Numbered from the stretch's first letter, positions 3,201-61,863 are shown. The stretch is 64,000 nucleotides of DNA from Candidatus Roizmanbacteria bacterium CG02_land_8_20_14_3_00_36_15 (GCA_002780795.1 PEUF01000041.1:3826-67825); one strand, 5' to 3'. Notes: a model not told the origin generated them from the sequence alone. Numbers and translations: made by a program.

Positions 3201-4571
3201 TTAATCATGAACCCAAATTTCGAGATTCAGTTCACGAAAGGATTTTTCTTCTTGCAAATGAAAATGGTAATCGACCAATGTCTTTTTATAATCATATCCA
3301 TAAATTTCGGCTGAGTAGGGAATAATGATGATTTTTTGCGGTAAACTCGTTGAACTCTCCAAACTCGTCAACTCGTTAACCTTTAAATCCTTTCTATAAT
3401 ATAACAAAGGGTCTGATGACGATTTAATCATATAGACTGGTTGGTCTTTCGGTAGAGTTTGCGCCAAACTTTTCCAGTCCTCTCGATGAAACTTAGCGCC
3501 AGTAAGATATAAACACGAAAAAACAAAAAAACCAATCAAGACAATCTTTCTAAACATTGGATTGTCCTTTAACGAAAAAGAAAGTAATAAACACATGATC
3601 GGAATCAGATAGAGGAATCTAAAATATTGAAGTAGGGGAGTGACGAAGGAAACGGCAAAACCCAAAACTAATGGAAAAATAAATAAATAAATAAATAAAT
3701 TAACGGCATTGAGATTTGATATGTGGATTTGAGATATAACAAATATGCTCCATCCACCCGCCATTAAGTAGTATAGCCACTTTGGATAAAAGTCGATTCT
3801 GCCGATCGAAAACTTAATCGGTATCAATAATAAATTTTTAATATTCGCTTTCCCCAAAACCAACGACCAGTTGGTCACATTGGATAAAGATATTTTGGCA
3901 TTAATAAGTTGTTGATAAAGTAGGGGAGAGATTGCTAAAAAATAAACAAATACTGCAAATAAACAAATAAAGAAATTTCTAAATTGCTTTTTATATAAAA
4001 AATAAAGTAAGAAAGCTGTAATCAAAAATATCGATCCATAAAAAGTCATCAACGATAAAAATACAAATAAATTAAACAAGATTTGAGATTTAAGATTTGG
4101 ATTTACGTTTTGACTTTTGCCTTTTGACTTTTGAATTCGCAACATTTTTTCGAAATAATACAAGGCTACGGTGAGAAAAAATGTTGTCGCCATGTACATT
4201 CTTGCTTCCTGACTGTAATAAACAATCAGCGGATTGAAAAGAAAAAAAACCGCCGCAAACAAGCCGGCTCTATAGCCATACATCCATCTAACCATTTTAT
4301 ATATAACGTATCCTGTAGCCAAACTAAATAAAACCGACGGCATCCTAAGTGAAATTTCCGAGTAGCCGAAAAAATTAGTCCACAGTTTCATAAACCAGTA
4401 GTAGAGCGGGGGATGAAAATCGTTCAGTAAGAATCTACTAACAATCTGTGTCAATTTGTATTCTTGAACCACTCGCGCCGTCGTCGCCTCATCCAGCCAG
4501 AGAGATTGGTTAAGTCCAATAAGACGAACTAAAAATGCTAAAGTAAATATAAATATTAATTTCTTCTTCAT
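3201..4571 (-). CDS. Integral membrane glycosyltransferase, ArnT/PMT-like paralog
   Basis: First loop contains SLWLDEATT, an acidic DE motif of the ArnT/PMT family. Polytopic. Carries an (AAAT)n run and heptamer arrays in frame. Confidence 0.55.
   Translation of the reverse strand: MKKKLIFIFTLAFLVRLIGLNQSLWLDEATTARVVQEYKLTQIVSRFLLNDFHPPLYYWFMKLWTNFFGYSEISLRMPSVLFSLATGYVIYKMVRWMYGYRAGLFAAVFFLFNPLIVYYSQEARMYMATTFFLTVALYYFEKMLRIQKSKGKSQNVNPNLKSQILFNLFVFLSLMTFYGSIFLITAFLLYFLYKKQFRNFFICLFAVFVYFLAISPLLYQQLINAKISLSNVTNWSLVLGKANIKNLLLIPIKFSIGRIDFYPKWLYYLMAGGWSIFVISQIHISNLNAVNLFIYLFIFPLVLGFAVSFVTPLLQYFRFLYLIPIMCLLLSFSLKDNPMFRKIVLIGFFVFSCLYLTGAKFHREDWKSLAQTLPKDQPVYMIKSSSDPLLYYRKDLKVNELTSLESSTSLPQKIIIIPYSAEIYGYDYKKTLVDYHFHLQEEKSFRELNLEIWVHD
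3711..3738. repeat. Heptamer array (GAGATTT family) inside an ArnT-like ORF
   Basis: gagattt|gatatgt|ggatttg|agatata. Shares the 15-mer ATGTGGATTTGAGAT with 46636-46650. (AAAT)5 lies adjacent at 3679-3700. Confidence 0.7.
4081..4137. repeat. Composite heptamer array inside an ArnT-like ORF
   Basis: atttgag|atttaag|atttgga|tttacgt|tttgact|tttgcct|tttgact|tttgaat. Confidence 0.75.
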
Positions 4572-4620
4572 TTGTTATAATTTTATAACACTAATAATCA
4601 ATAGCCAACAACTAGTTTAT

Positions 4621-4692
4621 GCGGTGGTAGTTCAGTGGTAGAATGTCTCCCTTCCAAGGAGAAGGTCAGGGGTTCAAATCCCCTCCACCGCT
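4621..4692 (+). tRNA. tRNA-Gly (anticodon UCC)
   Basis: Cloverleaf read by eye: acceptor GCGGTGG/CCACCGC, D arm GTTC-AGTGGTA-GAAT, anticodon arm TCTCC-CTTCCAA-GGAGA, T arm AGGGG-TTCAAAT-CCCCT. No encoded CCA. Confidence 0.9.
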
Positions 4693-4697
4693 CAAAA

Positions 4698-4943
4698 ATG
4701 ATTATTTTCATCAAGGGATCAATTAATTCTGGCAAGTCCTACTGTCTCCAAGATATTAGCTAAAAAAATAACCAACACAGTAATCCTGGAAATTGATGTA
4801 TTAAGAAAGTTTTATTGATTGGTTACTATTAGAAGAATCAATACCCATAAATCTTGAGAATGCTTGTTCATTAATAAGAAACTTTGCCAAAAAAAATATA
4901 AATGGTAAATCGACCGAAGAAGTACGATGTCATTCTTCCTAAA
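4698..4943 (+). pseudogene. Degraded P-loop NTPase/kinase-like gene remnant
   Basis: ATG at 4698 gives MIIFIKGSINSGKSYCLQDIS then TAA. Walker A GxxxxGKS is present. Downstream frames continue with short kinase-like fragments (KKITNTVILEIDVLRKFY*) broken by stops. Confidence 0.35.
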
Positions 4944-7393: not shown

Positions 7394-7400
7394 ATCTACA

Positions 7401-8324
7401 TTATAAAACTTTTGACTTTTCACTTCTAACTTTTAACTTATTTATTGGGTGCCAGTGGATTCTTCCTTCCGCCAAATAAATTCCTCCAAAAATTAAAATT
7501 CCTCCAAGAATATAAAATATATTCGGATATTCATGAAGTAAGGGAGCAGCTACAACTATAGCAGCCAAAGGATCAATATAGGTAAAGACTCCTATCTCTT
7601 GAGCTTTAAGTTTTGAAACTCCATAATAAAAAAGAAAGTAGGAGAGGGCGGAAGAAAAAAATACTCCAAATATTATTCCTGTCCATCCAGCAATATTAAG
7701 AAAGGAAATATCCCAACCGGCAAATTCTTTTGGTATAAATGGTATGAAAGTCAGACTACCAAATAAAAATGCGATAGCTGAAACTTGAATGGGTTTTATT
7801 TTTTTTAGAACATCATGTCCGATAATTGTCTGAAATACTGTCCCTAAGGTAGCTATCAAAATAAAGACATTTCCTTCAACAGCGCCTATGGCTAATTCTT
7901 TTCCATTTAAAATAAGTGGAGATAAAATGATAAATAATACACCTGATAAAGCGATTAACATACCTGTCAACACTCTTAACTTTGGTCTCTCCTTCAGAAA
8001 TATTATTGATAACAAATAAATAAATATTGGTCCGGAGGAAGCTATAACCGGCACATTAATACTTTCCGTTTTTTCTAATCCCAAAAAGAAAAAGGAAATA
8101 TTTATAGTAATCCCAAAAAATCCTACGAGAAGAACCTCCAGCCATTGACGTAGCGTCAATTTTTGCCATTTTCCGATTGCTAATGGTAAAAAAATTAAAC
8201 CGGCGAAAGAAAACCTGATAAATGCCAGTATAAAAGGGGGAATATTTGTTAGGGAAAACTTAAAAATTGGCGAGGCCATACCCCAGATAAAATTAGCGAT
8301 GATGAGGGCAAGAATTGGATTCAT
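7401..8324 (-). CDS. EamA/DMT family transporter
   Basis: About 10 TM helices arranged as two EamA-like halves. The C-terminal tail (KLKVRSEKSKVL) is encoded by a heptamer array. Confidence 0.7.
   Translation of the reverse strand: MNPILALIIANFIWGMASPIFKFSLTNIPPFILAFIRFSFAGLIFLPLAIGKWQKLTLRQWLEVLLVGFFGITINISFFFLGLEKTESINVPVIASSGPIFIYLLSIIFLKERPKLRVLTGMLIALSGVLFIILSPLILNGKELAIGAVEGNVFILIATLGTVFQTIIGHDVLKKIKPIQVSAIAFLFGSLTFIPFIPKEFAGWDISFLNIAGWTGIIFGVFFSSALSYFLFYYGVSKLKAQEIGVFTYIDPLAAIVVAAPLLHEYPNIFYILGGILIFGGIYLAEGRIHWHPINKLKVRSEKSKVL
7408..7442. repeat. Heptamer array ACTTTTN x5 (EamA C-terminus / galE upstream)
   Basis: acttttg|acttttc|acttcta|actttta|acttatt. Confidence 0.8.
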
Positions 8325-8327
8325 TAA

Positions 8328-8400
8328 ATAAGTTTATAAAGTTTTTAAAGTTTGTAAAGTTCTTAAAGACATTTCTTTATAAACTTTATGGACTTTACTA
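8328..8400. repeat. Intergenic inverted arms of ATAAAGTTT-type repeats
   Basis: ataaagtttataaagtttttaaagtttgtaaagttcttaaag ... ctttataaactttatggactttac. The left and right arms are complementary. Confidence 0.7.
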
Positions 8401-8401: not shown

Positions 8402-9310
8402 CTAGTTTTTCTTCTTCTGAAAAAAAACTATCAACTCTCCAATCATTCCCGTCATCACCACCTGTATGCCGACGATGACAAGAAGCATTCCTAAAAATAG
8501 TATTGGCCGACGATATAAGAGAACGTGATAGAAAAGCCGTTCTACCGCCAAATACATAAGGATAACGTTTCCCATAAAAAATAAAATTGTTCCAAATATG
8601 CCGAAAAAATGAAGCGGTTTTTCCGAAAATTGGTAAAGGAAATAAGCGGTTAAAGTATCAAGAATTCCGATGAAGAGCTTTGATTTACCAAACTTAGATT
8701 TACCAAACTGCCTGGGATGGTTTTTTACCTCAATCTCAACCACCTTGTATCCTTTGTAAAAAGCATATAGAGGAAAAAAACGAAAGTTATTTCCATAGAA
8801 GGTAAAGTCCTGTAATACTTCTTTTTTAAACGCCTTAAAACCACAGTTAATATCGGTAAAAGGTGAACGAAAAAATATTTTTAAAAAAAGTTTGGCTATG
8901 AATGAATAGGTTTTAATAATAAAATTATCCTGTCTGTCTTGTCTTATTCCGTTGACAAGATCGTAACCTTGACCTATTTTTTCTAGTAATCGAAGAAGAT
9001 CATTCGGCTCGTCTTGAAGGTCAGCATCCATAAAAATAATTACCTCGCCGGATGAATTTTCTATGCCGGTCTGCAAAGCCTTTCCTTTCCCAAACCTCTT
9101 CCGGTGGCTAATTAGTTTAATTTGGTAATTTTGAGTTTTGAACTGCAATTTTGAATTTTGAATTTTGAATTTTGAACTATCATCGCTTCCATCATCAACC
9201 AATATAATCTCTGCTTCTTTTTTTATCTTTTCTAAAACTTCAATTAAATGTTTAATTAAAGTAGGCAGGCTTTCCGCCTCGTTGTAAAAGGGAATTATTA
9301 TAGATAACAT
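8402..9310 (-). CDS. Family 2 glycosyltransferase (polyprenyl-phosphate sugar synthase type, two C-terminal TM helices)
   Basis: SIIIPFYNE, VDDGSDD and MDADLQDEP motifs plus C-terminal TM helices, as in GtrB/ArnC/DPM-synthase-like enzymes. Confidence 0.8.
   Translation of the reverse strand: MLSIIIPFYNEAESLPTLIKHLIEVLEKIKKEAEIILVDDGSDDSSKFKIQNSKLQFKTQNYQIKLISHRKRFGKGKALQTGIENSSGEVIIFMDADLQDEPNDLLRLLEKIGQGYDLVNGIRQDRQDNFIIKTYSFIAKLFLKIFFRSPFTDINCGFKAFKKEVLQDFTFYGNNFRFFPLYAFYKGYKVVEIEVKNHPRQFGKSKFGKSKLFIGILDTLTAYFLYQFSEKPLHFFGIFGTILFFMGNVILMYLAVERLFYHVLLYRRPILFLGMLLVIVGIQVVMTGMIGELIVFFQKKKN
9127..9177. repeat. Heptamer array AATTTTG x6-7 inside a GT2 ORF
   Basis: aattttg|agttttg|aactgc|aattttg|aattttg|aattttg|aattttg. 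Confidence 0.85.
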
Positions 9311-9315
9311 GGTTT

Positions 9316-9369
9316 AACTTTATGAACTTTATAAACTTTATAAACTTTATGGACTTTATGACTTTATAA
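9316..9369. repeat. Intergenic nonamer array AACTTTATR x6
   Basis: aactttatg|aactttata|aactttata|aactttatg|gactttatg|actttataa. Confidence 0.85.
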
Positions 9370-10875: not shown

Positions 10876-10914
10876 TGAAAATTCAATGAAAATTGCAAAT
10901 TAAAAATTGGAAAT
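10876..10914. repeat. Heptamer array TGNAAAT between the xer gene and the DUF2079 gene
   Basis: tgaaaat|tcaa|tgaaaat|tgcaaat|taaaaat|tggaaat. Confidence 0.75.
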
Positions 10915-11864
10915 TACTGATTACCTGAATGATACTTCTCATGTATCTCTCTTAATCTTGTATTGGTCACATGAGTATAGATCTGGGTGGTGGAAATATT
11001 TTTATGACCGAGCATTTCCTGAACGGCGCGCAAATCAGCCCCATGATTCAATAGATCTGTGGCAAATGAATGTCTTAAGGCATGGGGACCTAGACGATCA
11101 ACCAATCCGGCTTTTTTTCTATATTTTTCAACTAGACGTTCAATCGATCTTGCTGACAAACGCAATTTCTCATCGGTCAAACCAAGTTTGGACTTTGGAC
11201 CTGAATATCTGATGAAAAGTGGGCGATAGGAATCGTCTCTTTTGCGTAGATATTGGTTTAACCATTCCTTAGCTTTTTTAGACAAAAAAACTACTCTGCG
11301 TTTGCCGCCCTTACCCAAAACACTGAACTCCCCTGTTTTAATATTCGCCTCATCGCGATTCAAAGAAACTAGTTCCGAGACACGCAGGCCGGTAGAGAAA
11401 AGCACCTCTAATATAGCTCTGTCACGAAGCCCCATAATCTCTCGAGTATCGACAATGTTAAACAGTCTATTCAGGTTTTCCGGACTTAAAAATTTTATGT
11501 TACGGTCTCGTTGTTTTCCCAGTTCAATCATCTCAGGCGAGATGACTTTGACGTGCTGTTTTATCAAATAGCGAAGCATGCTTCTGATTGCTACCAGAAA
11601 GTAAGTTTGCGTTTGGCGCGCCAAGACACCCTTAAATGGATTTTTATACTGATGAGAAAGATATAATCGGAAGTTTCTGATCGTCTCTTCATTAATATCT
11701 TCAATGTTTGCATCTTCACTTTGATTTTTGATTTTTGCACTTTGAACTACCCAGTTCTGAAAGAACTGGAGATAGTACCCATACATTTTCACCGTCTTTA
11801 ACGAAAGATTTTTATCCAGTTCGCAGTATTCTAAAAATCTAAGTACCGCTTCCTTGATTGACAT
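10914..11864 (-). CDS. Tyrosine recombinase, XerC/XerD family
   Basis: C-terminal catalytic region HALRHSFATDLL...GHKNISTTQIYTHV. N-terminal SAM-like core-binding domain. Confidence 0.85.
   Translation of the reverse strand: MSIKEAVLRFLEYCELDKNLSLKTVKMYGYYLQFFQNWVVQSAKIKNQSEDANIEDINEETIRNFRLYLSHQYKNPFKGVLARQTQTYFLVAIRSMLRYLIKQHVKVISPEMIELGKQRDRNIKFLSPENLNRLFNIVDTREIMGLRDRAILEVLFSTGLRVSELVSLNRDEANIKTGEFSVLGKGGKRRVVFLSKKAKEWLNQYLRKRDDSYRPLFIRYSGPKSKLGLTDEKLRLSARSIERLVEKYRKKAGLVDRLGPHALRHSFATDLLNHGADLRAVQEMLGHKNISTTQIYTHVTNTRLREIHEKYHSGNQ
11716..11747. repeat. Heptamer array inside the xer ORF
   Basis: cactttg|atttttg|atttttg|cactttg, encoding SAKIKNQSE. Confidence 0.65.
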
Positions 11865-24852: not shown

Positions 24853-25651
24853 AATTTCTTTTAGCTTTCCAAAAAAGAGGGGAGACTATCTTGTTTTTTC
24901 TCTTCCCCAAACTAACCATTATCAAAATATTATTAATTTAGCCATAACACCTTCAGGGTGTAAAAAAACAGCGGACAAATGTTGGGGCAACAAGATAGTT
25001 ATTTTAACATTAAACGACGTTAAGAAGGAAGTAAAAATAGATTTTCAGATCAAACTAAAACCCTATTCTGTGACTATTAACAAAAACTATAAGATAACTA
25101 ATTATTCAAAAAATGTCTTTTCTCCCAATCGTTTCATCAATGGACAAGATCAAAAAATAGTAAAAATAGCCAAGGGGGTTGTTGGGAAAGAAAGAAATCT
25201 AGAAACGATAATAAAAAATCTATATTTATTTACTAGAAATTATTTAACCTATGGCAAACCAACCGCTGGACTCTATAGTTACAAACAGGCAATAGAGGAG
25301 AGGATGACCGACTGCGGAGGCTTTTCAACCTTTCTAGCCTCACTTTTGCAGACAGTAAATATACCTAGTCGTTTAGTAGTTGGTTTCTTGATAAAAAAAG
25401 ATTGGGTCTCACGAATATTAACTTTTAATTTCTCACTTTTAACTTTTAACTTTCTAAAAATTCATGCTTGGCTTGAAGTTATGCTACCAAACAAGAGTTG
25501 GTTTCCAATTGATGCCTCGACCAGCAAATTTGGCCAAATACCAGCCAATCGATTGGTTACTTCATTTGGTTGCGATTTTAATATCAAAATAAATAATAGT
25601 AATTATCAAATTGATTTGTTACAAAAACCTGTTTATTTATCGAAAAATTAA
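24833..25651 (+). CDS. Transglutaminase-like cysteine peptidase domain protein
   Basis: TDCGGFSTF (Cys), HAWLEV (His) and PIDAS (Asp) form the triad pattern. A heptamer-array insert (LTFNFSLLTFNF) sits between Cys and His. Start at MNTVVTK. Confidence 0.65.
   Translation: MNTVVTKISFSFPKKRGDYLVFSLPQTNHYQNIINLAITPSGCKKTADKCWGNKIVILTLNDVKKEVKIDFQIKLKPYSVTINKNYKITNYSKNVFSPNRFINGQDQKIVKIAKGVVGKERNLETIIKNLYLFTRNYLTYGKPTAGLYSYKQAIEERMTDCGGFSTFLASLLQTVNIPSRLVVGFLIKKDWVSRILTFNFSLLTFNFLKIHAWLEVMLPNKSWFPIDASTSKFGQIPANRLVTSFGCDFNIKINNSNYQIDLLQKPVYLSKN
25421..25455. repeat. Heptamer array ACTTTTA x5 inside the transglutaminase-like ORF
   Basis: actttta|atttctc|actttta|actttta|actttct. Confidence 0.8.
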
Positions 25652-25653: not shown

Positions 25654-26976
25654 ATGATCAGTTGTGACTTTGCACCAAATGAGGCTTGGGATGACGCCTG
25701 GATCGCTTTTAAGCTAATCCTTCAACCTTGGAAATGGAAAAAAGGTAAAGAGCTTGATTTAATTAAAGAAATATTATTGCAGAAAATTTATGGATCCTGT
25801 CAGAAGTTTCCTTCCCGCCAGTGCTCGACTTGCGTTGAAAGACCCCAAGATCTCTGCGCTGTCGGGATCCCTCCTTCTTCTGCCACCCATAAATTTTCTG
25901 CAAACTTGTTTCTATCTGGCAGATCAGCACTCAACTATCTACTAAAATCACTCAACTTACCGAAAGAATCCGAGATAATTGTCCAGGGTTTCACCTGCGA
26001 GGCCGTCGTCCTACCAATATTGGCCAATAATTTAAGGCCTGTTTATGTTGATATTGAGACTGAGTCATTTTCCTTTGATCCTATAGATTTAGAAAAAAAG
26101 ATAACTAGCAAAACCCGGACAATCATCCTTCAGCATAGTTTTGGCATAACACCAAAGCACCGAGAAATAATCATTTCCATTGCCAAACAACATCGTTTAC
26201 TGCTAATCGAGGATATAGCACATGGATTTCAAAGTCAAAAGTTAAAAGTTAAAAGTCAAAAGTCTATTTATTTAATGTCTTTTGGCCGGTCCAAAGCCAT
26301 ATCGTCGGTCTTCGGTGGAGCGATTGTCACTAATAATAAATCAATTGCCAGAAAATTAGAATTAATTGAAAAAAATCTACCAAAACCCAATCTTTTTTTT
26401 ATCTTCAGAACTTTAATTTATAAACCGTTATCTATGGTTATTAGATTAACTTACGATTTTTTACTGGGGAAAATTATCCATAAATTAATAAATTTGTTTG
26501 CGATTTTTCCTCCAGAAATCACCAAAAAAGAAAAAAGGGGAGAGTATAGTAGTTTTTTCGATAAAGCATATCCCAATGCTCTAGCGATTCTTTTACTCCA
26601 TCAGTTAAATAAAGTTGATCAAGTTAACAAACAAAGGGCTAAAATATGCCAAGTGTATCAAAGGAAAATCTCAAATCTTAAATCTAAAATCTCAAATTTA
26701 GCATTAAGTCGTTATCCTTTGTTAGTCAAAAATCGGTCACCAATAATAACAAAAGCGCAGAAACAAAATATTTTTCTAGGTAACTGGTACAACCAACCAG
26801 TTGGACCAGCTAGCCTTAATCTCGCTAAAGTACAGTATCAACTTGGCAGTTGCCCAGTAGCGGAGGAAGTTTGTCAACATATTATTAATCTACCAACTAA
26901 TATAACTATAGTAAGCGCTAAACGAATAATCACTTTGATTTTAAATAAGAAAAGTGTAAAGTGTGCGGATTTTTAA
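25654..26976 (+). CDS. DegT/DnrJ/EryC1/StrS family aminotransferase-like protein
   Basis: IEDIAHG and SFGRSKAISSVFGGAIV (PLP-lysine region). Contains one GC-rich insert and two heptamer arrays in frame. Confidence 0.65.
   Translation: MISCDFAPNEAWDDAWIAFKLILQPWKWKKGKELDLIKEILLQKIYGSCQKFPSRQCSTCVERPQDLCAVGIPPSSATHKFSANLFLSGRSALNYLLKSLNLPKESEIIVQGFTCEAVVLPILANNLRPVYVDIETESFSFDPIDLEKKITSKTRTIILQHSFGITPKHREIIISIAKQHRLLLIEDIAHGFQSQKLKVKSQKSIYLMSFGRSKAISSVFGGAIVTNNKSIARKLELIEKNLPKPNLFFIFRTLIYKPLSMVIRLTYDFLLGKIIHKLINLFAIFPPEITKKEKRGEYSSFFDKAYPNALAILLLHQLNKVDQVNKQRAKICQVYQRKISNLKSKISNLALSRYPLLVKNRSPIITKAQKQNIFLGNWYNQPVGPASLNLAKVQYQLGSCPVAEEVCQHIINLPTNITIVSAKRIITLILNKKSVKCADF
25792..25870. repeat. 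GC-rich segment bounded by GGATCC-containing imperfect inverted repeats, in frame in the DegT-like ORF
   Basis: GGATCCTGTCAG ... CTGTCGGGATCC (10/12 complementary). Encodes GSCQKFPSRQCSTCVERPQDLCAVGIP. Confidence 0.5.
26231..26265. repeat. Heptamer array AAAGTYA x5 inside the DegT-like ORF
   Basis: aaagtca|aaagtta|aaagtta|aaagtca|aaagtct. Confidence 0.85.
26666..26700. repeat. Heptamer array AAATCTN x5 inside the DegT-like ORF
   Basis: aaatctc|aaatctt|aaatcta|aaatctc|aaattta. Confidence 0.85.
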
Positions 26977-27119: not shown

Positions 27120-28292
27120 ATGATCATTAAAGAAATAGAAGATTATAAAACCTGGACTAAGTTTTTTAATCAAAACGGTTCGCCGTCGTTTTTGCAATCC
27201 TGGGGGTGGGGAGAGATACAAAAAAAACTGGGTTATAATATCTTGCGTCTAGGCCTTTATGATAAAGATAAACTTACTGCCATCACTTTGGTTGTTAAGA
27301 TTAGAGCTAAAAGAGGCAATTTTTTATTTATTCCAAATGGGCCAATAACACAATCTCAAATCTCAAATCTCAAAACTCAAAACTACATCTCAAATCTAAA
27401 ATCTTATTTCATCAAGCTGGCAAGGAAAGAAGATTTTTCTTTCATAAGGATTGCGCCTATTCTTGAAAACACTCCTGAAAATCAAAAAATATTTAAACAT
27501 TTAAACTTTAAAACCGCTCCAATCTATATGCATGCGGAAACGGTGTGGCAACTACCGTTAACCGCCGCGGTTGAGGAGCGGAGCGGGAAAACCGCGGCGG
27601 TTTATTGCTTGACCGATAATCAGTTGCTTTCAAACATGCGCAAAACAACTCGTTACTTAATCCGCAAAGCGATCCGCGACGGTGTTATTATCGAAAAACG
27701 AACCGATGAAAAAGCGGTTGAGGATTTTTACCAAATTTATCAAGAAACTGCAAAAAGAGAATATTTTGTCCCGTTCTCAAAAAAATATATTAAAGAGGAG
27801 TTTAAGGCGTTTAACAAAACCGGAAACGCAATATTTTTGTTTGGAAAAATAAATAAACAGGCGACGGGTGTTGAGAAGAAAGGGTTCCTGACAGCGCGTA
27901 GCGATTTTTCCAGCCCGCCGCTGGTCGCGAGCACTGACGGGAATGAATTCGAAACAGGCCCCGTCGCCTCAGCACTTATTCTTTTTACTAAATCTACTGC
28001 ATTTTACCATCAAGGCGCTTCAATTCATACCAAGGTTCCGGCTACTTATCTTCTCCAGTGGGAAGCCATAAAAGAAGCCAAAAAACGTGGTTGCTCATTA
28101 TATAATTTTTGGGGAATATATGATGAGAACTCGGGCAGGATGCCCAAAGCCTGGCAAGGGTTAACTCTTTTTAAAACCGGTTTTGGCGGTAAAAAGATTT
28201 GTTATTTGCCCACCCAAGATTATATAATCTCTTCAAGATATTTTTTAACAGTTATCTGGGAAAAACTATTAGCTTGGAAAAGAGTAATATAA
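27120..28292 (+). CDS. FemAB family peptidoglycan interpeptide-bridge peptidyltransferase
   Basis: FLQSWGWGEIQKKLGY N-terminal signature and FYHQGAS in the C-terminal half. Carries three apparent in-frame inserts. Confidence 0.7.
   Translation: MIIKEIEDYKTWTKFFNQNGSPSFLQSWGWGEIQKKLGYNILRLGLYDKDKLTAITLVVKIRAKRGNFLFIPNGPITQSQISNLKTQNYISNLKSYFIKLARKEDFSFIRIAPILENTPENQKIFKHLNFKTAPIYMHAETVWQLPLTAAVEERSGKTAAVYCLTDNQLLSNMRKTTRYLIRKAIRDGVIIEKRTDEKAVEDFYQIYQETAKREYFVPFSKKYIKEEFKAFNKTGNAIFLFGKINKQATGVEKKGFLTARSDFSSPPLVASTDGNEFETGPVASALILFTKSTAFYHQGASIHTKVPATYLLQWEAIKEAKKRGCSLYNFWGIYDENSGRMPKAWQGLTLFKTGFGGKKICYLPTQDYIISSRYFLTVIWEKLLAWKRVI
27352..27403. repeat. Heptamer array AATCTCA x7 inside the FemAB ORF
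   Basis: aatctca|aatctca|aatctca|aaactca|aaactac|atctcaa|atctaaa. Confidence 0.85.
27560..27602. repeat. Perfect 13-bp GC-rich inverted repeat with a 17-nt loop, in frame in the FemAB ORF
   Basis: AACCGCCGCGGTT-gaggagcggagcgggaa-AACCGCGGCGGTT. Encodes LTAAVEERSGKTAAV. Confidence 0.8.
27859..27969. repeat. GC-rich ~110-bp segment bounded by a 10-bp inverted repeat, in frame in the FemAB ORF
   Basis: AGGCGACGGG (27859-27868) and CCCGTCGCCT (27960-27969). AAACAGGC precedes both arms. Confidence 0.7.
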
Positions 28293-35920: not shown

Positions 35921-35926
35921 AATGAA

Positions 35927-35957
35927 AATATTAAATATTAAATATCAAATATTAAAT
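35927..35957. repeat. Intergenic heptamer array AATATTA x4-5 (upstream of yebC)
   Basis: aatatta|aatatta|aatatca|aatatta|aatt. Confidence 0.8.
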
Positions 35958-36036
35958 TCTCTTTGATAGTGTTATTATACTTGACATTGACGAAAATTAA
36001 AATATACTTGAATGAAGTTTAATTTTATTAGTCATT

Positions 36037-40890: not shown

Positions 40891-41002
40891 TATTTTAAAG
40901 TATAATTTATCCTAATTTTATACCCCTATTCTTTCAAATTGCAAGGGTTTATACCTAACGGAGTCCCGAGATTTTCGGGACGGAGTGGTATAAAAGCAAC
41001 TT

Positions 41003-41572
41003 ATGGCTCAAAAAACTTTAAAAGTCGGATTTGATCTCGATGGGGTCATTCTTTATAACCCATTCCGCATTGTCAGACCATTTATTGCTATCTTTAAAAA
41101 AATTGTTTTAGGTTTCGATCATCGCCCCCTGAAGTTCTATTACCCGAAAACTAGATTAGAAAGGTATTTTTGGCGTGTGGCTCACAAATCCAGTTTCTTT
41201 ATTGGTTATGGTTTCTGGGAAATACTTACTCTCATTAAAAAAAGAAGGATCAAAGCTTATATCATCACCGCTCGATTTAGTTTTTTAGAGAATGATCTCA
41301 ATCGAAAAATAAAACAGCTTGGTATAAAGAAATATTTTTCTGCCATCTACTTTAATAGAAAAGACGAACAACCCCATCTATTTAAAGAAAAAATGATAAA
41401 GAAATTAGGTCTTGATGTTTATGTCGAAGACAATTGGGATATAGTAAGATATCTAAACTTAAAAGTCAAAAGTCAAAAGTCAAAAGTTTATTGGATATAT
41501 AATATCCTTGATAGAAAGATTAAATACCAATATAAATTTTCATCTTTAAAAAAAGTGGCAAAAAAATTATGA
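41003..41572 (+). CDS. HAD-like hydrolase
   Basis: Motif I VGFDLDGVI and a late VEDNWD motif. Heptamer array in frame (KVKSQKSKV). Confidence 0.5.
   Translation: MAQKTLKVGFDLDGVILYNPFRIVRPFIAIFKKIVLGFDHRPLKFYYPKTRLERYFWRVAHKSSFFIGYGFWEILTLIKKRRIKAYIITARFSFLENDLNRKIKQLGIKKYFSAIYFNRKDEQPHLFKEKMIKKLGLDVYVEDNWDIVRYLNLKVKSQKSKVYWIYNILDRKIKYQYKFSSLKKVAKKL
41461..41488. repeat. Heptamer array AAAAGTC x4 inside the HAD-like ORF
   Basis: aaaagtc|aaaagtc|aaaagtc|aaaagtt. Confidence 0.9.
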
Positions 41573-42562: not shown

Positions 42563-43720
42563 ATGGAAATTTTATTTTTCTCCCCTTATTTTTACCCTTA
42601 TATTTCTGGTTTGACTACTTATCCGTACAAAATTTTAACTCATCTCTCTAAAAAACATAAAATAACTGTTCTTACCTTTCCCTATCAAAAAGAATTAACA
42701 ATTAACAATCAACAATTAACAATTAAATATCTTCCCTACTTTTTTCGTTTTTCCAAAGGTTTCATTTCCCCCCCATCAATATTTTATTTTTATTATTATG
42801 CAAAAAAATCCGATTTAATAATTTTAAACCAGCCGAATTTTGAGGGTCTTTTTTTAGCAATAATAGGAAAAATTCTTCATAAAAAAATTGTTTCAATTTT
42901 GCACTGTCAGGTATTCTTAGATAGTGGTTTTTTTAACCAAATCATAAACTCATTCCTAAACCTATCAGTCTTTATTCAACTTTGGCTCTCCAATAATATT
43001 ATTGCTTATACTGAAGACTACTTTAAAAGTTTAAAAATTAGCCGTTTCTTTCTTAAAAAAACCAGGTTTGTTTTACCACCGATTGAATTTTTAAAAATAA
43101 ATCAGAAAAAACTCAAAGAGTTCGATAGATTAAAAACTGATAAAATTTGGCTCGGCTATGCCGGGCGGATTGCCTCCGAAAAAGGATTGGAATATCTTGT
43201 ACAATCGATTAATCAACTATATGCCAAAAACAAGGTTGAGTTAGTTTTTGCTGGCCCTTATGGAAAAGACGTTTCTGGCGAAGATAAATATTATAAAAGA
43301 ATTATCAACCTTCTCGAAACCAATGTCGTCAAGCACCATTTCTTTGGAAATTTATCGGATGGCGATTTGAGCGCTTTTTATAAAGCTATTGATCTCTTAG
43401 TATTACCTTCAATCAATCAAACTGAAGCTTTTGGCATGGTTCAGGCTGAAGCGATGCTTACCGGCACTCCTGTCATCGCTTCTAATTTACCGGGAGTTAG
43501 AGTTCCAATCCGATTAACAAAAATGGGGGAAATAGTTAAGCCAAAAAATCCACAACAAATAAGCAAGGCAATTATAAAAATTTTAAAAAATAAAAACAAA
43601 TTCTCTAATAATTTTTTAATTAATAAGGCAAAAAAAATCTTTGATATTAATAAAACCTATCAATTTTATGATAATTTAGTGTGTCAGAGCCACCCGAATT
43701 TGACCGAAGCGGTCAAATAA
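42563..43720 (+). CDS. Family 4 (GT-B) glycosyltransferase
   Basis: The C-terminal EAFGMVQAEAMLTGTPVIASNLPG motif is typical of GT4. Confidence 0.8.
   Translation: MEILFFSPYFYPYISGLTTYPYKILTHLSKKHKITVLTFPYQKELTINNQQLTIKYLPYFFRFSKGFISPPSIFYFYYYAKKSDLIILNQPNFEGLFLAIIGKILHKKIVSILHCQVFLDSGFFNQIINSFLNLSVFIQLWLSNNIIAYTEDYFKSLKISRFFLKKTRFVLPPIEFLKINQKKLKEFDRLKTDKIWLGYAGRIASEKGLEYLVQSINQLYAKNKVELVFAGPYGKDVSGEDKYYKRIINLLETNVVKHHFFGNLSDGDLSAFYKAIDLLVLPSINQTEAFGMVQAEAMLTGTPVIASNLPGVRVPIRLTKMGEIVKPKNPQQISKAIIKILKNKNKFSNNFLINKAKKIFDINKTYQFYDNLVCQSHPNLTEAVK
42693..42727. repeat. Heptamer array AATTAAC x5 inside the GT4 ORF
   Basis: aattaac|aattaac|aatcaac|aattaac|aattaaa. Confidence 0.9.
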
Positions 43721-45898: not shown

Positions 45899-47618
45899 TT
45901 TTATAAATTAAGACTTTGGGATGATCATAGACGGTGAAAGTCTCTTCGGACCATGAATCATTAATTTGAAATTTAAAATTTAAAATTTTTAATTCTGGAT
46001 ACGCCGAAAATTCCATAATTTTTTTATAATTCGTCTTCCCATCAAACAAATTTTTGTAGAACTTACTCATTATTGGATATCTGGTCGGCGCATCCATGAT
46101 GCTCCCCCATCCTCTGTTTGACGATAAGATATAATAGTCAGCCCGTTTCATTTGTTCTTTAATTTTTTCCATCTTCTCGGGACCGTCCGGATCAAAAATA
46201 TTTATCGCTTCTAACTTGAAAGTCTTTCCGTAATTCTTTTCCAAAGATAAAGGTAATGGATCATCCCAATGCTCCCAAAGAATCGTCGAATTATTAGGTA
46301 GATTTTTAAAGACCCATTCGGAAGCAACAACCCGGCTGTGTTTTTGCCGATAAATTGAAGTAAAGGCAATCGGCCAAAGTAATAGAAAAATAATTAAAAT
46401 AAAATCCGAAACAAATACCAATGTTTTTAATTTTAAAAATTTGAGTTTAAACATTGTTTCGAATTTCGATATTTGCGCCCCGAATTTACTTATTCCTATC
46501 CCCGAAAATATCGCAAAAAACGGATAAAGATAAATGGTGTAACGGATGGATTTGACAAACTGAACAGATTGATAAACAAAATAGCCCAAAACCCAAAGTA
46601 ATATTCCTGAGAATAAATAGTTTTTAGATTTTAGATGTGGATTTGAGATTATCCACCCGATGCCAATAATCATAAATATAAAGTAAGGTAACCCTACTCC
46701 GAAAAACATCAAATTTGTTAAAAGAAAGCTTACCGGTTTTCCAATCCACTGAACCGCCGGCGGATACCAGATATCTGGCCGGCTAAGCTGAGTTAACGAC
46801 TTTAAACTATCAACAAATAACTTATTTAATCTTGGGTCAAAAAAATTAGAGCTTTGAAAATAATAAGGATCGCTAAAACGTAAGGTTAAATAACCAACTA
46901 TAAGATATGTGACTGAAAGGAAAAGTATCTTAATCAAATCTTTTAAAGATTGTCTTTTATAAAGACAGTCTTTAAATAAAAAAAACAGAATTAAAGGGAG
47001 AATATAAAAGGCACTAACTTTGCAGGCTAAAGCGAAACCGAAAAAGATAGCGGATAAAAAATTTTTTTTACGTAACGCACAGTAAAACGACGCAAACATA
47101 AAAAAATTTAAAAAGCTATCAACGGTAAAAAAGTGAGAGGCTTGAATTGGGCAGACGGCAATAGCATAAAAAAAGGCAGACCAAAAAGGAATTGTCGAAA
47201 CTGGTTGAAATTTGTTGAAATTAGCTTTATGAAATTTAATCGTTAATAACTCTGCCGACTTATAAACTAAAATAACAATCAAGAAATCAAAAAAGGCTGA
47301 CAGTATCCTTCCTTGGATGGTAAAAAAATTATAACTATCTGCTCCAGTCGTTAATGCTAATAATTTATTTAAAACCAGTGGAAAAATTCCATAAACATAG
47401 AATTTGTAACCAATGTTGTTAGGATTGAAAGTTGAGCGTTGAACGTCTAAATAATCCTTGAAGGAATCGGGAACTTTCATCGCCTCTCCCACCATGGTTA
47501 AAAATCTTTCATCAGGGTGAAGATGGTAATTACTATCCCAGTTAGGATTATTAAAGCGGAAAACTATTGCGGAAAAAAGAATTAACAGTAATAAAATCCA
47601 TCGCATAATTGAATTCAT
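45882..47618 (-). CDS. Large polytopic membrane glycosyltransferase-like protein (ArnT/PMT- or DUF2298-type)
   Basis: First loop HLHPDERFLTM, many TM helices and a soluble C-terminal domain. Three heptamer arrays in frame. Confidence 0.5.
   Translation of the reverse strand: MNSIMRWILLLLILFSAIVFRFNNPNWDSNYHLHPDERFLTMVGEAMKVPDSFKDYLDVQRSTFNPNNIGYKFYVYGIFPLVLNKLLALTTGADSYNFFTIQGRILSAFFDFLIVILVYKSAELLTIKFHKANFNKFQPVSTIPFWSAFFYAIAVCPIQASHFFTVDSFLNFFMFASFYCALRKKNFLSAIFFGFALACKVSAFYILPLILFFLFKDCLYKRQSLKDLIKILFLSVTYLIVGYLTLRFSDPYYFQSSNFFDPRLNKLFVDSLKSLTQLSRPDIWYPPAVQWIGKPVSFLLTNLMFFGVGLPYFIFMIIGIGWIISNPHLKSKNYLFSGILLWVLGYFVYQSVQFVKSIRYTIYLYPFFAIFSGIGISKFGAQISKFETMFKLKFLKLKTLVFVSDFILIIFLLLWPIAFTSIYRQKHSRVVASEWVFKNLPNNSTILWEHWDDPLPLSLEKNYGKTFKLEAINIFDPDGPEKMEKIKEQMKRADYYILSSNRGWGSIMDAPTRYPIMSKFYKNLFDGKTNYKKIMEFSAYPELKILNFKFQINDSWSEETFTVYDHPKVLIYKNAKKS
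45963..45997. repeat. Heptamer array AATTTNA x5 inside the large membrane GT ORF
   Basis: aatttga|aatttaa|aatttaa|aattttt|aattctg. Confidence 0.8.
46626..46653. repeat. Heptamer array (AGATTTT family) inside the large membrane GT ORF
   Basis: agatttt|agatgtg|gatttga|gattatc. Shares a 15-mer with 3721-3735. Confidence 0.7.
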
Positions 47619-50010: not shown

Positions 50011-50217
50011 ATGAGTAATATTTGGGACTATGATAAAAAGGAGTTGGAGAAAACTGAAGAAGGAAGAATCAAAATACTGGAGCGGAAAATAAACTTTGGA
50101 GTTTATTTGAAAGATAAAGAAAAGGTCCCTGTTAATGAAGTAAAAAAATATTGGAACAGATTGAAACTCGATTCAGGAAGGAAAAATTTTCTCAAATTTA
50201 TCATATGGGGAAAATAG
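50011..50217 (+). CDS. Small protein upstream of, and overlapping, the AbiEii-like gene (candidate cognate partner)
   Basis: 68 aa. Its stop overlaps the likely AbiEii start by 13 nt. No wHTH motif recognised. Confidence 0.35.
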   Translation: MSNIWDYDKKELEKTEEGRIKILERKINFGVYLKDKEKVPVNEVKKYWNRLKLDSGRKNFLKFIIWGK

Positions 50218-54708: not shown

Positions 54709-54755
54709 GATTTTTATAAACTTAATAAGCTTTACGAACTTTATAGACTTTTATA
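54709..54755. repeat. 47-bp ACTTTAT-type repeat element flanked by a 13-bp direct repeat
   Basis: TCTCCTGAATATT at 54696-54708 and again at 54756-54768. The second copy contains the guaB stop codon. Confidence 0.75.
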
Positions 54756-56187: not shown

Positions 56188-57625
<1,438 letters not shown>

Positions 57626-59191: not shown

Positions 59192-59737
59192 ATGATATTA
59201 ATCATCTCACTGCTAGTAATAACATTGATCATAATTATTCTTTTTTCTTTTCCCCAACTTTCTCCTGTTCCCTACTTTCCTACTAATAAAAAAGATCTGC
59301 CTCTGATCGTCAAAGCCCTTGGTTTGAAGAATAATCAAACGGTTTTAGATTTAGGCGCCGGCGATGGCATCGTCATTTTTGAAGCGGCAAAAAAAGCTTA
59401 TAAACGAAAGTTAAACACTAAGTTTGTGGCCGTGGAAATTAACCCAGTTTTAATTTTAATAATGAATATCCGCTACCTTTTCCACCCAAACAGAAAAAAT
59501 ATAAAAATCGTCTTTGGCGATATTTTTAAAATGAATTACAAAAAACTTTTAACTTCTAACTTTTCACTTTTAACTTTCTATCTTTATATTTCTCCCTGGT
59601 TTCTTGAAAGAGTAATTCCAAATTTAAAATTTAAAATTTCAAATTTTTCCATCGTTTCTTACATGTACCCGGTAAAAAGCCTAAAAAGCAAAGAAAAAAT
59701 TATTTGTGGAAAAAATAAGATTTTTGTATATAATTAA
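59192..59737 (+). CDS. Small class I SAM-dependent methyltransferase with an N-terminal TM helix
   Basis: VLDLGAGDGIVIFEAA motif I. Two heptamer arrays in frame. Confidence 0.55.
   Translation: MILIISLLVITLIIIILFSFPQLSPVPYFPTNKKDLPLIVKALGLKNNQTVLDLGAGDGIVIFEAAKKAYKRKLNTKFVAVEINPVLILIMNIRYLFHPNRKNIKIVFGDIFKMNYKKLLTSNFSLLTFYLYISPWFLERVIPNLKFKISNFSIVSYMYPVKSLKSKEKIICGKNKIFVYN
59545..59579. repeat. Heptamer array ACTTTTA x5 inside the small MTase ORF
   Basis: actttta|acttcta|acttttc|actttta|actttct. Confidence 0.85.
59614..59648. repeat. Heptamer array AATTTAA x5 inside the small MTase ORF
   Basis: aattcca|aatttaa|aatttaa|aatttca|aattttt. Confidence 0.85.
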
Positions 59738-59744
59738 AGCCTCA

Positions 59745-60595
59745 CAGCTATTCTTTCCCGACCGCTTCGGTCAAAAACGTGTTGGCATAACAATCTAAAA
59801 TTACTCCATAATGAGCTTTTTTATTAATTTTAATTTTCTCTGATAATCAATGTTATTTTCACAAAAATTTTTATATGAATCGGTATCGTTTATCGAAATT
59901 TCTGTTAAATAATTTTTTAGAATATTATTATTCAAATAATATTTATAAGAGGAAAAAATCCAATCTTCTGGTTTTTCTACTAAATAATTTGTAGTAGGAT
60001 TTATGTTAATATAACGAGAAATATGAAGAAGTTGTTCATTAGATTTTATTAGTATGAATTTAAAATTAGACTGCCATAATGGCCCTTTTCTGTTAAATTT
60101 TATGTTAAAAAATCTGGAATAACTGTTTTCTATATCATTAATATATTTTGAAAGGCAATTTTCTTTTAAAATCTCAATTAATAAATGATAATGGTCAGGC
60201 ATAATACAATAAGCTAAAAATTTAATTAATCTGTCGTCTTTAACTGTTAGTAATTCTGGTGAATAATTTTTATTAGTTTTTAAATAATTTCCTAAATTAG
60301 ATTGAACTAGCAGGTTATTGTAATAATCTAACACTTGAATAAATCTTTGTGAATTATTTAGGTCTTTAAATATTGGATAGTTGGCAATGCTTTTATTAAA
60401 CACGTGATATATTTTACCTTCGGGAAATTTTTTCATAGATTTAGTAATAAATTATTAACTTTAAAAAATTTATAGTTCATATAAATTCATTTGTCTATAG
60501 ACTATAGTCTACAAAAAGGTATTTTTGGCTTATTTTGGAGCGCTAAACCAACCTAATACCGACCGCTTCGGTCAAGAGAAGGTTGGTATAACAAG
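59745..60595 (-). mobile_element. IS200/IS605-like or RAYT-type unit: a Y1 HUH transposase gene bracketed by two copies of a hairpin element
   Basis: GACCGCTTCGGTC + AA + 7 nt + TTGG[C/T]ATAACAA at 59760-59795 and 60561-60595, both in the same orientation, immediately outside the ORF. No terminal inverted repeats, as expected for this family. Confidence 0.55.
59801..60436 (-). CDS. Y1 (HUH) transposase, IS200-like / REP-associated tyrosine transposase family
   Basis: HUH motif MPDHYHLLI. Catalytic Tyr region ISRYININPTTNYLVEKPEDWIFSSYKYY matches the Y..NP...LV..PedY.wSS pattern. Confidence 0.75.
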   Translation of the reverse strand: MKKFPEGKIYHVFNKSIANYPIFKDLNNSQRFIQVLDYYNNLLVQSNLGNYLKTNKNYSPELLTVKDDRLIKFLAYCIMPDHYHLLIEILKENCLSKYINDIENSYSRFFNIKFNRKGPLWQSNFKFILIKSNEQLLHISRYININPTTNYLVEKPEDWIFSSYKYYLNNNILKNYLTEISINDTDSYKNFCENNIDYQRKLKLIKKLIME

Positions 60596-61246
60596 TTAGC
60601 TGGAAATGATTTTAAGGATTTCGGAAGGTTTGGAGACGATAAAATCAGCGCCGTATTTTTTTAGAATATGTGCTTTGTTTAATCCCCAAGAAACGGCGAT
60701 TATCTTCATCTTGATTTTTTTACACGCCTCAATATCACGAATCTCGTCACCTACATAAACAGTTTTTTCTTCTTTAAAATTGTTTTTTTTTAATAGATTA
60801 TCAATAGCAGCCGCTTTTCCTAAAATATGGCTACCGCAGTCAATAAAATCAAAAAAGTCTATTTGGTTAACCAGTAGAAATTTTTTGACATTTTTTTCCA
60901 AATTAGAAGATAAAATCATCAAATTAATACCTCTTTTTTTCAAATCTTTAAGGAGTTTTTTAATGCCAGGAAATATTTTTATCGTCTCTATTTCCCCATA
61001 TAGTTCTTCCTGCATTTTTCTGATGATTCCCATAATCAAAGGCAGCTTAAACCAAGATAATTTCATACCACCCAAGGTCATCAGTTCTCGATAACTTTTT
61101 GTTCTTATTTCTTTAATAATTTGTTTTTCACTAAGATTATTTATTTTTAGAATTCTGGCTATTTTTATAACGTTCTTAAAACTAAAAGGCAACGTATCGG
61201 CGATTGTACCGTCAAAATCGAAGATAACCATTTTTATTTTTTGCAT
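60596..61246 (-). CDS. HAD superfamily hydrolase (phosphoglycolate phosphatase-like)
   Basis: MVIFDFDGTIADT motif I, LSSN motif II, VGDEIRDIEA motif IV. Start at MQKIKMVIF. Confidence 0.75.
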   Translation of the reverse strand: MQKIKMVIFDFDGTIADTLPFSFKNVIKIARILKINNLSEKQIIKEIRTKSYRELMTLGGMKLSWFKLPLIMGIIRKMQEELYGEIETIKIFPGIKKLLKDLKKRGINLMILSSNLEKNVKKFLLVNQIDFFDFIDCGSHILGKAAAIDNLLKKNNFKEEKTVYVGDEIRDIEACKKIKMKIIAVSWGLNKAHILKKYGADFIVSKPSEILKIISS

Positions 61247-61296
61247 ATTCCAAGGTTTGACCCTAATCGAGTTAGACCTTATTATATAATAATAGA

Positions 61297-61863
61297 ATGT
61301 CGTCAGTGTTAAAATTCGATCTCTACACAACCGTCTTACTACAAACCATTATTCCTCATAACGTTTTTTTCTCCTATTTTTTTTCTTTTTTTTCAATAAA
61401 GGGAATTTCTGTTGTCATCTGGCTTTTGATTGCTGCCTTTCTTATTTTTTTTGAAGAAAGGAAGCACCCGGGAATTCAGAAAAAAGACAAACAGTTTCTT
61501 TTATGCTTTACCATTAGTCTTCTAATCACTGCGACTTTAACTAACTTCGTTATTAAAAATATCATCCGCCGTCCCCGCCCGATTTTTCCACCTAACATCT
61601 ACCACCTAACCCCTAACATTTCTAGCTGTCCCGCCGACTTTTCCTTCCCCTCCGGCCACGCCGCTTCTTCTTTTGCCGCCGCTTGTATTCTATCTTATTT
61701 TGACAAAAAACGGCGCTGGTTTTATTACTTGGTAGCAATATTAATAAGTTATTCAAGAATCTACCTTGGTTGCCATTATTTTTTGGATGTAGTCGTTGGA
61801 GCACTAATTGGTTATCTAGTAAGTAAGGTCTTTCTTCAAATCCATAGTATAATAGGTAAATGA
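61297..61863 (+). CDS. PAP2 superfamily phosphatase (undecaprenyl-diphosphate / lipid phosphatase-like)
   Basis: KxxxxxRP (IIRRPRP), PSGHA and SRIYLGCHYFLDV motifs. A CACCTAA heptamer array lies in frame between motifs 1 and 2. Confidence 0.75.
   Translation: MSSVLKFDLYTTVLLQTIIPHNVFFSYFFSFFSIKGISVVIWLLIAAFLIFFEERKHPGIQKKDKQFLLCFTISLLITATLTNFVIKNIIRRPRPIFPPNIYHLTPNISSCPADFSFPSGHAASSFAAACILSYFDKKRRWFYYLVAILISYSRIYLGCHYFLDVVVGALIGYLVSKVFLQIHSIIGK
61589..61620. repeat. Heptamer array CACCTAA x4 inside the PAP2 ORF
   Basis: cacctaa|catctac|cacctaa|cccctaa. Confidence 0.8.

Follow-up and report, generated by a model that had tools for sequence, protein, structure and literature searches.

Dispersed heptanucleotide arrays in a Candidatus Roizmanbacteria genome resemble tolerated coding microsatellites more than rapid on/off switches

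In the classical contingency loci of Haemophilus, Neisseria and Campylobacter, surface-modification genes carry tetra- or pentanucleotide or homopolymer simple sequence repeats (SSRs), the tracts being long, perfect and usually near the 5' end, switching at high frequency and presenting OFF alleles that are common among strains. Short tandemly repeated repetitive (STRR) sequences, by comparison, are defined unit sequences of heterocystous cyanobacteria. Here, tandem arrays of 7-nt units dispersed across a 64 kb stretch of DNA (the window) from one groundwater population of Candidatus Roizmanbacteria (Microgenomates, candidate phyla radiation (CPR), according to the source records) are considered. 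An initial annotation of the window had presented these arrays, found mainly in envelope-related genes, as possible contingency (phase-variable) loci, with STRR as the nearest described analogue. Like classical contingency loci, the arrays are non-triplet SSRs in surface-modification genes, and natural frameshift alleles occur (in a GT2 gene and a HAD-like gene). Unlike those loci, most of the arrays are not long, perfect, 5'-proximal and fast-switching, nor are their OFF alleles common.

The closest mechanistic analogue is, by likeness of organization, NeuO of the E. coli K1 prophage CUS-3, a capsule O-acetyltransferase whose open reading frame (ORF) contains an (AAGACTC)n array beginning two nt after the start codon, with 2–93 perfect copies (PMC3046976). 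Three units encode one disordered hydrophilic heptad, RLKTQDS, such that the enzyme is switched on solely when the copy number is divisible by three; switching is frequent and mainly involves single units, and activity is adjusted by the number of heptads (PMC3046976). In the window, too, a 7-nt unit is found inside an ORF for a surface-polysaccharide-modifying enzyme, the unit AAAAGTC being close to AAGACTC, and three units again encode a hydrophilic heptad (KSQKSKV, as compared with RLKTQDS). In both cases, slippage would alter unit number, with changes other than multiples of three shifting the frame, and the array sites of the DegT protein are modelled as low-confidence loops, reminiscent of the disordered segment of NeuO. 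Unlike in NeuO, the arrays here comprise 4–8 imperfect units, lie mid-gene at loop sites common to several species, are distributed among many genes and intergenic DNA and are nearly fixed in copy number in the population.

According to a 2007 survey, as relayed in parts of PMC4692102 and PMC4679880, heptanucleotides are the most abundant class of long SSRs in many bacteria, slippage tied to the polymerase-contacted DNA segment was proposed as the cause, and units of triplet-multiple length are most often found in coding regions. In agreement with that survey, as so relayed, period 7 is favoured here whatever the sequence; unlike in the survey, the non-triplet heptamers considered here are in frame in many genes and at the same sites across species. 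In the same parts of these two papers, STRR, GGGAATC (Xanthomonas/Nostoc) and TAACTGA (Beggiatoaceae) repeats are each described as involving one or a few defined units that are mainly intergenic and under-represented in coding sequence (PMC4692102, PMC4679880). These repeats and the present arrays have in common a tandem 7-nt organization scattered over many loci, unit numbers that are typically 2–6 or about four and variation between relatives, yet dozens of units are seen here and most of the window arrays are translated. The analogy to STRR drawn in the initial annotation hence holds for a 7-nt period dispersed over many loci and not for unit sequence, given the 80 A/T-rich units found, nor for taxon, this being Candidatus Roizmanbacteria. 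In Borg genes, the repeated units are reportedly multiples of three, unlike the 7-nt unit seen here, for which frame is kept only in three-unit blocks. Within the portion of the Borg literature used here, tandem repeats are described as fast-evolving, as arising independently and as creating low-complexity or disordered protein segments (PMC9879509), and the in-protein arrays resemble them in generating low-complexity segments. CPR genomes are not mentioned in the relevant passages of PMC4692102 and PMC4679880 and literature searches found no such description, in agreement with what the initial annotation had stated. What is new here is the CPR lineage, the density, the many hosts and units, the mid-gene loop sites common to several species and the collinear, conversion-like spread.

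Arrays were called using Tandem Repeats Finder (TRF) with a main cut-off of at least 3.5 copies, and 30 dinucleotide-preserving shuffles of the window served as the control for chance. This revealed 21 period-7 rows in the window, 16 of which contain at least 3.5 copies (3.7–7.7 copies, 77–100% matches), corresponding to a density of about 2.5 arrays per 10 kb, as compared with a mean of 0.3 and a maximum of 1 in the shuffled window. In a lag test of the window, 12 regions showed at least 85% self-match at lag 7, with none doing so at lags 5, 6, 8 or 10–12. The dispersed heptanucleotide arrays described in the initial annotation are thus real and exceed the frequency expected from base composition. 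Thirteen of the 16 are in frame and wholly within long ORFs, including that at 7407–7439, which additionally reaches into the beginning of the gene that follows, while two are intergenic (35926 and 57501). According to Pfam, the host genes encode PMT_2 (ArnT-like), EamA, GT2, transglutaminase-like, DegT, FemAB, HAD-like, GT4, methyltransferase and PAP2 proteins, in agreement with the families listed initially; a further host, an RgtA-like glycosyltransferase, is so named by the source annotation only. The peptides quoted in that list, namely, KVKSQKSKV, ISNLKSKISNL and LTFNFSLLTFNF, are correct by translation. Of the 21 genes in the window with envelope or glycan functions, 9 carry arrays, as compared with 1 of the remaining 39 (Fisher p = 1.6e-4), so that the proposed bias toward envelope hosts holds for this window; with a stricter gene grouping, the corresponding values are 6 of 14 and 4 of 46 (p = 0.007).

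The extent to which such arrays are distributed among relatives was addressed using the DegT neighbourhoods of 80 other species, comprising 1.17 Mb from Roizmanbacteria/Microgenomates metagenome-assembled genomes (MAGs). In these 80 species, TRF detected 172 arrays of at least 3.5 copies with period 7, as compared with 30, 19 and 13 with periods 8, 6 and 9, respectively. A general preference for non-triplet units was rejected, since, in the window, periods 4, 5 and 8 showed little or no comparable excess. The 170 arrays with a 7-nt consensus correspond to 80 canonical units, A/T-rich in nature, indicating conservation of the period but not of the unit sequence. Density differs by clade, from 2–20 arrays per 10 kb in some (the upper value, some 20 per 10 kb, being reached in related contigs that are short) to about none in deep-branching ones, and is higher the closer the relationship to the window (rho = 0.40, p = 2e-4). 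AT-richness does not account for the arrays, as relatives of 30% GC (L043 and L045) contain 0–1 arrays in 21 kb, with the window being about 34% GC. Exact 7-nt duplications occur at 4.7 times expectation in array-rich loci and at 1.3 times expectation in array-poor loci. When a synthetic (ISNFKFQ)n sequence was used as query in a protein-database search for taxonomic spread, only 12 short and probably spurious ORFs were returned, such as in Desulfonema magnum. Many third-party MAG records (among L009-L084) containing Roizmanbacteria-type DegT/FemAB/transglutaminase-like clusters are titled 'uncultured Gammaproteobacteria' or 'Pseudomonadales', with one titled 'Weeksellaceae'; these titles are probably taxonomic mislabels.

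In the window and the 80 loci combined, where 84% of the sequence is coding, 92 arrays are found in ORFs, 15 at ORF edges and 81 in intergenic regions, meaning that array density per base is about 4.6-fold higher outside genes than inside. The initial statement that most arrays lie inside ORFs is therefore correct for the window (13 of 16) and incorrect for the lineage. On the sense strand, 61 of the in-gene arrays are A-rich, encoding peptides composed of K, S, Q, N and I, while 30 are T-rich. Three units (21 nt) encode a 7-residue low-complexity peptide that is the same, up to rotation, in any entry frame. In the T-rich arrays at 25418 and 59544, a perfect unit would introduce TAA every three units, and it is the unit in that register that reads TCA. 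When an array was considered in open frame if the frame remains open over 150 nt or more in each direction, a test that arrays hugging a start codon could escape, 66 of 158 arrays in the window and the 80 species were so classified. Only three of the remaining 92 could be restored by a change of ±1 or ±2 units, one of these being the junction of the EamA and epimerase genes. OFF-phase alleles are accordingly not common among related genomes, with at most three candidates being seen as opposed to 66 arrays in frame.

Examination of orthologous proteins revealed that in-gene arrays recur at the same sites. In DegT, mapping of TRF calls onto the alignment placed 41 arrays, from 24 of 81 species, exclusively at three hypervariable sites and without exception in frame, with heptamer-type peptides such as ISNFKFQIS, LHVTGYMLHV and KILNLKSKILNL being found at these sites in other species. 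The window DegT gene contains two arrays, both on the plus strand, namely, AAAAGTC/T at 26231..26264, in the loop after the AHG motif, and AAATCTC at 26666..26697. The first, at site 2, aligns without gaps to the AHG–SF…K motif loop of solved DegT-family structures. In the AlphaFold model of DegT (mean predicted local distance difference test (pLDDT) score of 78.9), the array sites are predicted as low-confidence loops, with pLDDT values of 52 (aa 191–200), 56 (aa 341–350) and below 50 (aa 48–78). FemAB orthologues in other species, together with the window gene (27120–28292), present 16 arrays at a single site with a different unit in each, that of the window being AATCTCA (27352..27404, plus strand, 7.7 copies). 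Transglutaminase-like proteins contain arrays in 11 of 32 species, again at a single site, represented in the window by a T-rich array of sense unit TTAACTT (25418..25453, plus strand). No arrays were detected in Mur ligase, Zip or ABC ATPase orthologues at the same loci, corresponding to 56, 21 and 25 kb, respectively.

Most orthologues present ordinary sequence of similar length, without an array, at these sites. The transglutaminase-like segment is mostly 26–27 residues long whether or not an array is present, array peptides keep a physico-chemical pattern, such as xTFxFxLL, and array-free species show a weak 7-residue periodicity at the same site (SxFxNLL / SLxFNSL). Since in-gene arrays are often collinear with array-free homologues, the possibility of clean lineage-specific insertions, put forward in the initial annotation as something to be checked, was rejected. 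Units found at one site are often single-mutation neighbours, as is the case for AAAAATC, AAAAGTC, AAAAGTT and AAAAATG, which fits the concerted evolution of a long-lived array. Furthermore, most of the other contigs from the population carry a linked pair of single-nucleotide polymorphisms (SNPs), 25429 T>C and 25432 C>T, within the array at 25418. These changes render the array more regular with no change in length, suggesting short-patch templated conversion between units.

At the N-terminal hypervariable site of the window DegT, where other species carry heptamer arrays, a 147-nt hairpin-forming element (25767-25913) is found in frame. This element has 27-nt inverted arms that are 85% complementary, a predicted folding energy of −56.8 kcal/mol and a GC content of 45%, as compared with about 34% for the genome, and the roughly 40 residues encoded are modelled as disordered. 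No second copy was found in the window or the 80 related loci, nor was there any Rfam match. It resembles the in-frame palindromic elements of Rickettsia.

To identify length alleles, near-clonal contigs of the same population (JGI, ENA and NCBI) were compared with the window. The window DegT protein is identical on PEUZ01000045.1 (GCA_002779965.1) and on dozens of JGI/ENA contigs. Eight distinct indels were seen in the population contigs, six of which are multiples of 7 nt inside arrays that cover less than 1% of the sequence. In the GT2 gene (8402–9310, minus strand), the array of sense unit CAAAATT (9127..9176, 7.3 copies, four of which are perfect, aa 44–60) has lost 7 nt at 9147 in three contigs (L090, L091 and L092) that also share SNPs, splitting the gene into 63 and 209 aa. 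In the HAD-like gene (41003–41572), a perfect (AAAAGTC)3.9 array near the C-terminus (41461..41487, plus strand) is shortened by 7 nt in L094, leading to a frameshift near the C-terminus, and by 14 nt in L087/L108, where the frameshift yields a 161-aa product. By contrast, only frame-preserving three-unit (21 nt) variants are seen in DegT, one deletion at 26231 (allele P0126 / L088) and another at 26665 (allele P0127 / L089), each giving rise to a 433-aa protein. The sixth is a 7-nt gain in L088, at 35925, within the intergenic AAATATT array (35926..35957, no strand assigned) found directly upstream of the YebC start codon.

Apart from these, the only indels seen are that of a single C (1 nt) at 29476 and, in a strain of greater divergence, a deletion of 48 nt. 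The former lies outside any homopolymer run, in a minus-strand region containing genes at 28972-29451 and about 29466-29756, where an ABC-2 permease gene is split into 159 and 96 aa in the window and in L002, L003, L088, L097, L098 and L101, while being intact, at 261 aa, in most other contigs. The latter, in L113 (GCA_002793785.1, 34 SNPs in 14 kb), removes 36004-36051, comprising the start of a TPR gene and the adjoining intergenic region, and involves no heptamer array.

Variant alleles are rare, being present on some 1–5% of contigs. DegT is of 440 aa on about 51 contigs and 433 aa on two, GT2 is intact on about 54 and split on three, and the HAD-like protein is of full length on about 69 and frameshifted on three. 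When 20 loci sampled with less bias were compared (226 kb aligned, 109 SNPs), the 14-nt deletion in the HAD-like gene was the only array variant. Length variation involves arrays that, according to TRF, belong to the more regular of those present. ON/OFF alleles were seen among the population contigs only for the GT2 and HAD-like genes and for none of the other approximately 11 in-gene arrays. Truncated members of the protein clusters (P0150, P0145, P0186, P0161 and P0169) were rejected as evidence for phase variation, as their ends lie away from arrays; these probably reflect contig edges or start calls. Flank–gap–flank scans of a metagenome contig collection for the DegT arrays found nothing, the population apparently being absent there. 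One population contig, L093, starts at 27427, 23 nt downstream of the FemAB array, possibly reflecting an assembly break at a polymorphic repeat.

Taken together, the arrays appear closer to microsatellites tolerated in coding sequence than to switches flipping rapidly on and off, and the best reading, held here with moderate confidence, is that they are slippage-driven coding and intergenic heptanucleotide microsatellites filtered by selection in genes. Replication slippage with a strong 7-nt register, which would be a heritable trait of certain Roizmanbacteria clades, would both write the arrays and keep their units homogeneous. Within genes, selection would let through only units that are free of stop codons or patched against them, only array lengths that keep the frame and only positions in indel-tolerant surface loops of certain proteins, here mostly envelope or glycan enzymes. 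At such sites, arrays would outlast speciation, while their units would drift and re-homogenise in a process of concerted evolution that may include short-patch conversion without change of length; the encoded peptides would themselves be near-neutral. Steps in copy number would then yield loop variants longer or shorter by 7 residues where the gene is needed, as for DegT, and occasional frameshift nulls where an accessory gene is dispensable, as for those encoding GT2 and the HAD-like protein.

Several points weigh against this account. Frameshift alleles in the GT2 and HAD-like genes and the bias toward envelope genes are also expected from a contingency system. The long persistence of array sites with conserved peptide patterns (xTFxFxLL) could reflect peptides selected for function. 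Nothing in the data explains why the register is of 7 nt. Moreover, as all of the comparison loci are DegT neighbourhoods, the gene-class and density statistics are not genome-wide, and as the population contigs are consensus assemblies that hide within-sample variation, switching rates may be underestimated.

The possibility that the arrays are adaptive contingency loci, in which one-unit steps switch surface-glycan enzymes and so diversify the envelope in the face of phages or hosts, is considered unlikely, albeit less so than the other alternatives. A unit length that is not a multiple of three, location within ORFs and, in two cases, directly against start codons, the natural alleles in which a frameshift results from loss of 7 nt (GT2, three samples) or of 7 or 14 nt (the HAD-like gene), the enrichment of arrays in envelope and glycan genes of the window and the precedent of the NeuO heptanucleotide variable-number tandem repeat in a capsule-modifying enzyme (PMC3046976) all point in this direction. 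Still, the arrays contain 4–8 imperfect units with no long near-perfect tract, as opposed to the 2–93 perfect copies of NeuO, the majority lie in the middle of genes, at sites used repeatedly in different species, stop-creating units are mutated with the frame staying open, and arrays are denser outside genes. Moreover, 66 arrays are in frame as opposed to at most three OFF candidates, DegT offers only ±21 nt variants, OFF alleles account for about 5% of contigs, with the GT2 allele sharing SNPs across samples, and a single array variant was seen in 20 loci spanning 226 kb. The contingency idea of the initial annotation thus stands in that whole-unit changes occur, frameshift alleles exist in two genes and hosts are biased toward the envelope, and fails as a general system in light of the short, imperfect, mid-gene tracts, the few OFF alleles and the in-frame DegT variants. 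A switch role is partly supported for the GT2 and HAD-like genes only. Somewhat less probable, and best described as doubtful, is a combined account in which a heritable replication or repair quirk of some Roizmanbacteria clades continually writes and re-homogenises the heptamers, in-frame three-unit steps tune loops at the surface of glycan and cell-wall enzymes and one-unit steps act as a slow switch of accessory glycosyltransferases, diversifying the envelope. Still more doubtful is the notion that the encoded 7-residue repeats are the selected product, serving as tunable linkers or loops with the DNA repeat as the means of tuning, as may be compared with the poly-psi heptads of NeuO. Arrays do occupy the same sites across deep divergence with residue patterns conserved despite different units, ±7-residue DegT alleles coexist in the population, array sites are modelled as low-confidence loops and, by analogy, NeuO activity scales with heptad number (PMC3046976). 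Yet most orthologues have no array at these sites, presenting instead ordinary sequence of similar length, many arrays are intergenic and peptide variety is high, given 80 units.

A role as cis-acting DNA or RNA elements, be they protein-binding, regulatory or structural motifs, or as the footprints of small mobile elements is very improbable and, for the in-gene arrays, largely refuted. Two intergenic AAATATT arrays are found directly against the YebC and PurA start codons, and regulatory roles have been proposed for sequence-specific intergenic heptamers elsewhere, according to the sections of those reports drawn upon here (TAACTGA, GGGAATC; PMC4679880, PMC4692102). No unit sequence is, however, common to the arrays (80 units), their flanks, judged by eye only, share no motif, and arrays within genes show collinearity with homologues instead of insertion. 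A mobile mini-element was rejected on the basis of the first two of these observations, with that on the flanks again being by eye only, and a known RNA family was rejected as Rfam identified only four tRNAs in the window. DNA curvature due to phased A-tracts was likewise set aside, as a 7-bp spacing would be out of helical phase. Finally, the view that AT-rich composition generates the arrays as a by-product, or that they are artefacts of assembly, is refuted and left with next to no weight. The genome is AT-rich (about 34% GC), as are the units, but 16 arrays were detected as opposed to 0.3 in dinucleotide shuffles, equally AT-rich relatives have none and identical arrays appear in dozens of independent NCBI, JGI and ENA assemblies.

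Turning to the remaining arrays of the window, all described by TRF unless stated otherwise, the minus-strand PMT_2/ArnT-like gene (3201–4571, Pfam) contains an in-frame array of sense unit CAAATCT (4079..4104, 3.9 copies) encoding NPNLKSQIL, adjoined by one of sense unit GTCAAAA (4108..4134, 3.9 copies, 90% matches) encoding QKSKGKSQ. The same ORF contains, on the minus strand, a perfect (AAAT)6 tetranucleotide run (3677..3700, period 4, 6.0 copies, 100% matches), which is no heptamer array. An array of sense unit AAAAGTT (7407..7439, minus strand, 4.7 copies) occupies the C-terminal end of EamA (gene 7401–8324) and shares sequence with the first part of the epimerase gene (6362–7423), where loss of 7 nt would fuse both ORFs. 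A weak heptamer of 2.6 copies lies in the minus-strand tyrosine-recombinase gene (11720..11737; gene 10914–11864). The GT4 gene (42563–43720) contains AATTAAC (42693..42726, plus strand), and the minus-strand RgtA-like glycosyltransferase gene (45882–47618) contains AATTTAA near its C-terminus (45963..45988) and a weak array of sense unit TCTCAAA (46622..46650, 4.3 copies, 78% matches). The methyltransferase gene (59192–59737, plus strand) contains the T-rich sense unit AACTTTT (59544..59577) and AAATTTA (59620..59646), while the PAP2 gene (61297–61863, plus strand, Pfam) contains four degenerate CACCTAA-like units (61589..61616), a marginal array detected by the lag test and scoring below 30 in TRF. 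Of the positions initially listed, those at 4081, 7408, 9127, 25421, 26231, 26666, 27352, 35927, 41461, 42693, 45963, 59545 and 59614 correspond to clear arrays, while those at 3711, 10876, 11716 (2.6 copies), 46626 and 61589 (the four degenerate units) are weak or marginal. The intergenic AAATATT array directly upstream of the PurA start codon (57501..57531, no strand assigned) had been missed.

Other repeats are also present in the window. Six period-9 arrays of unit YATAAAGTY contain at least 3.5 copies, as compared with 0.03 expected, and are distributed among four sites (8330-8397, 9304-9384, 40808-40891 and 54713-54751), all of which are short intergenic gaps upstream of minus-strand genes, namely, those encoding EamA, GT2 and LGT and the ORF at 53592–54674. 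Some of these are arranged as inverted pairs that could form long hairpins. As all period-9 arrays are intergenic, repeats of triplet-multiple length are found outside genes in the window, with 7-nt repeats being found inside. No length variants of the period-9 arrays were seen in the population contigs. Between 57511 and 57614, period-26 and period-18 repeats with TTAAAG/TTAAAC-rich inverted segments span the PurB stop codon (57546) and extend into the gap before the PurA start codon (57498), adjoining the AAATATT array. Genes related to mobility or defence include those encoding an IS200-like Y1 transposase (59801-60436) and the tyrosine recombinase noted above, as well as an AbiEii toxin gene and an AbiEii fragment (50151-50861 and 63576-63980).

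CPR bacteria are uncultured, possess tiny genomes and rely on cell-surface interactions, with the source of their envelope diversity being not well understood. The arrays considered here are dense, clade-specific, non-triplet coding microsatellites that lie behind most of the natural indel variation seen, and the GT2 and HAD-like alleles offer concrete candidates for strain-level glycan variation. In terms of annotation, the arrays leave MAGs with segments of low complexity, alleles differing by ±7 residues and split genes, all of which could pass for assembly errors. The arrays also provide a natural system for asking why slippage favours 7 nt in bacteria, a pattern reported in 2007, as relayed in part by later papers. 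Were the combined account involving a replication quirk to hold, doubtful as this is, such slippage would supply envelope diversity to an episymbiotic, phage-exposed CPR bacterium that is largely without other variation systems.

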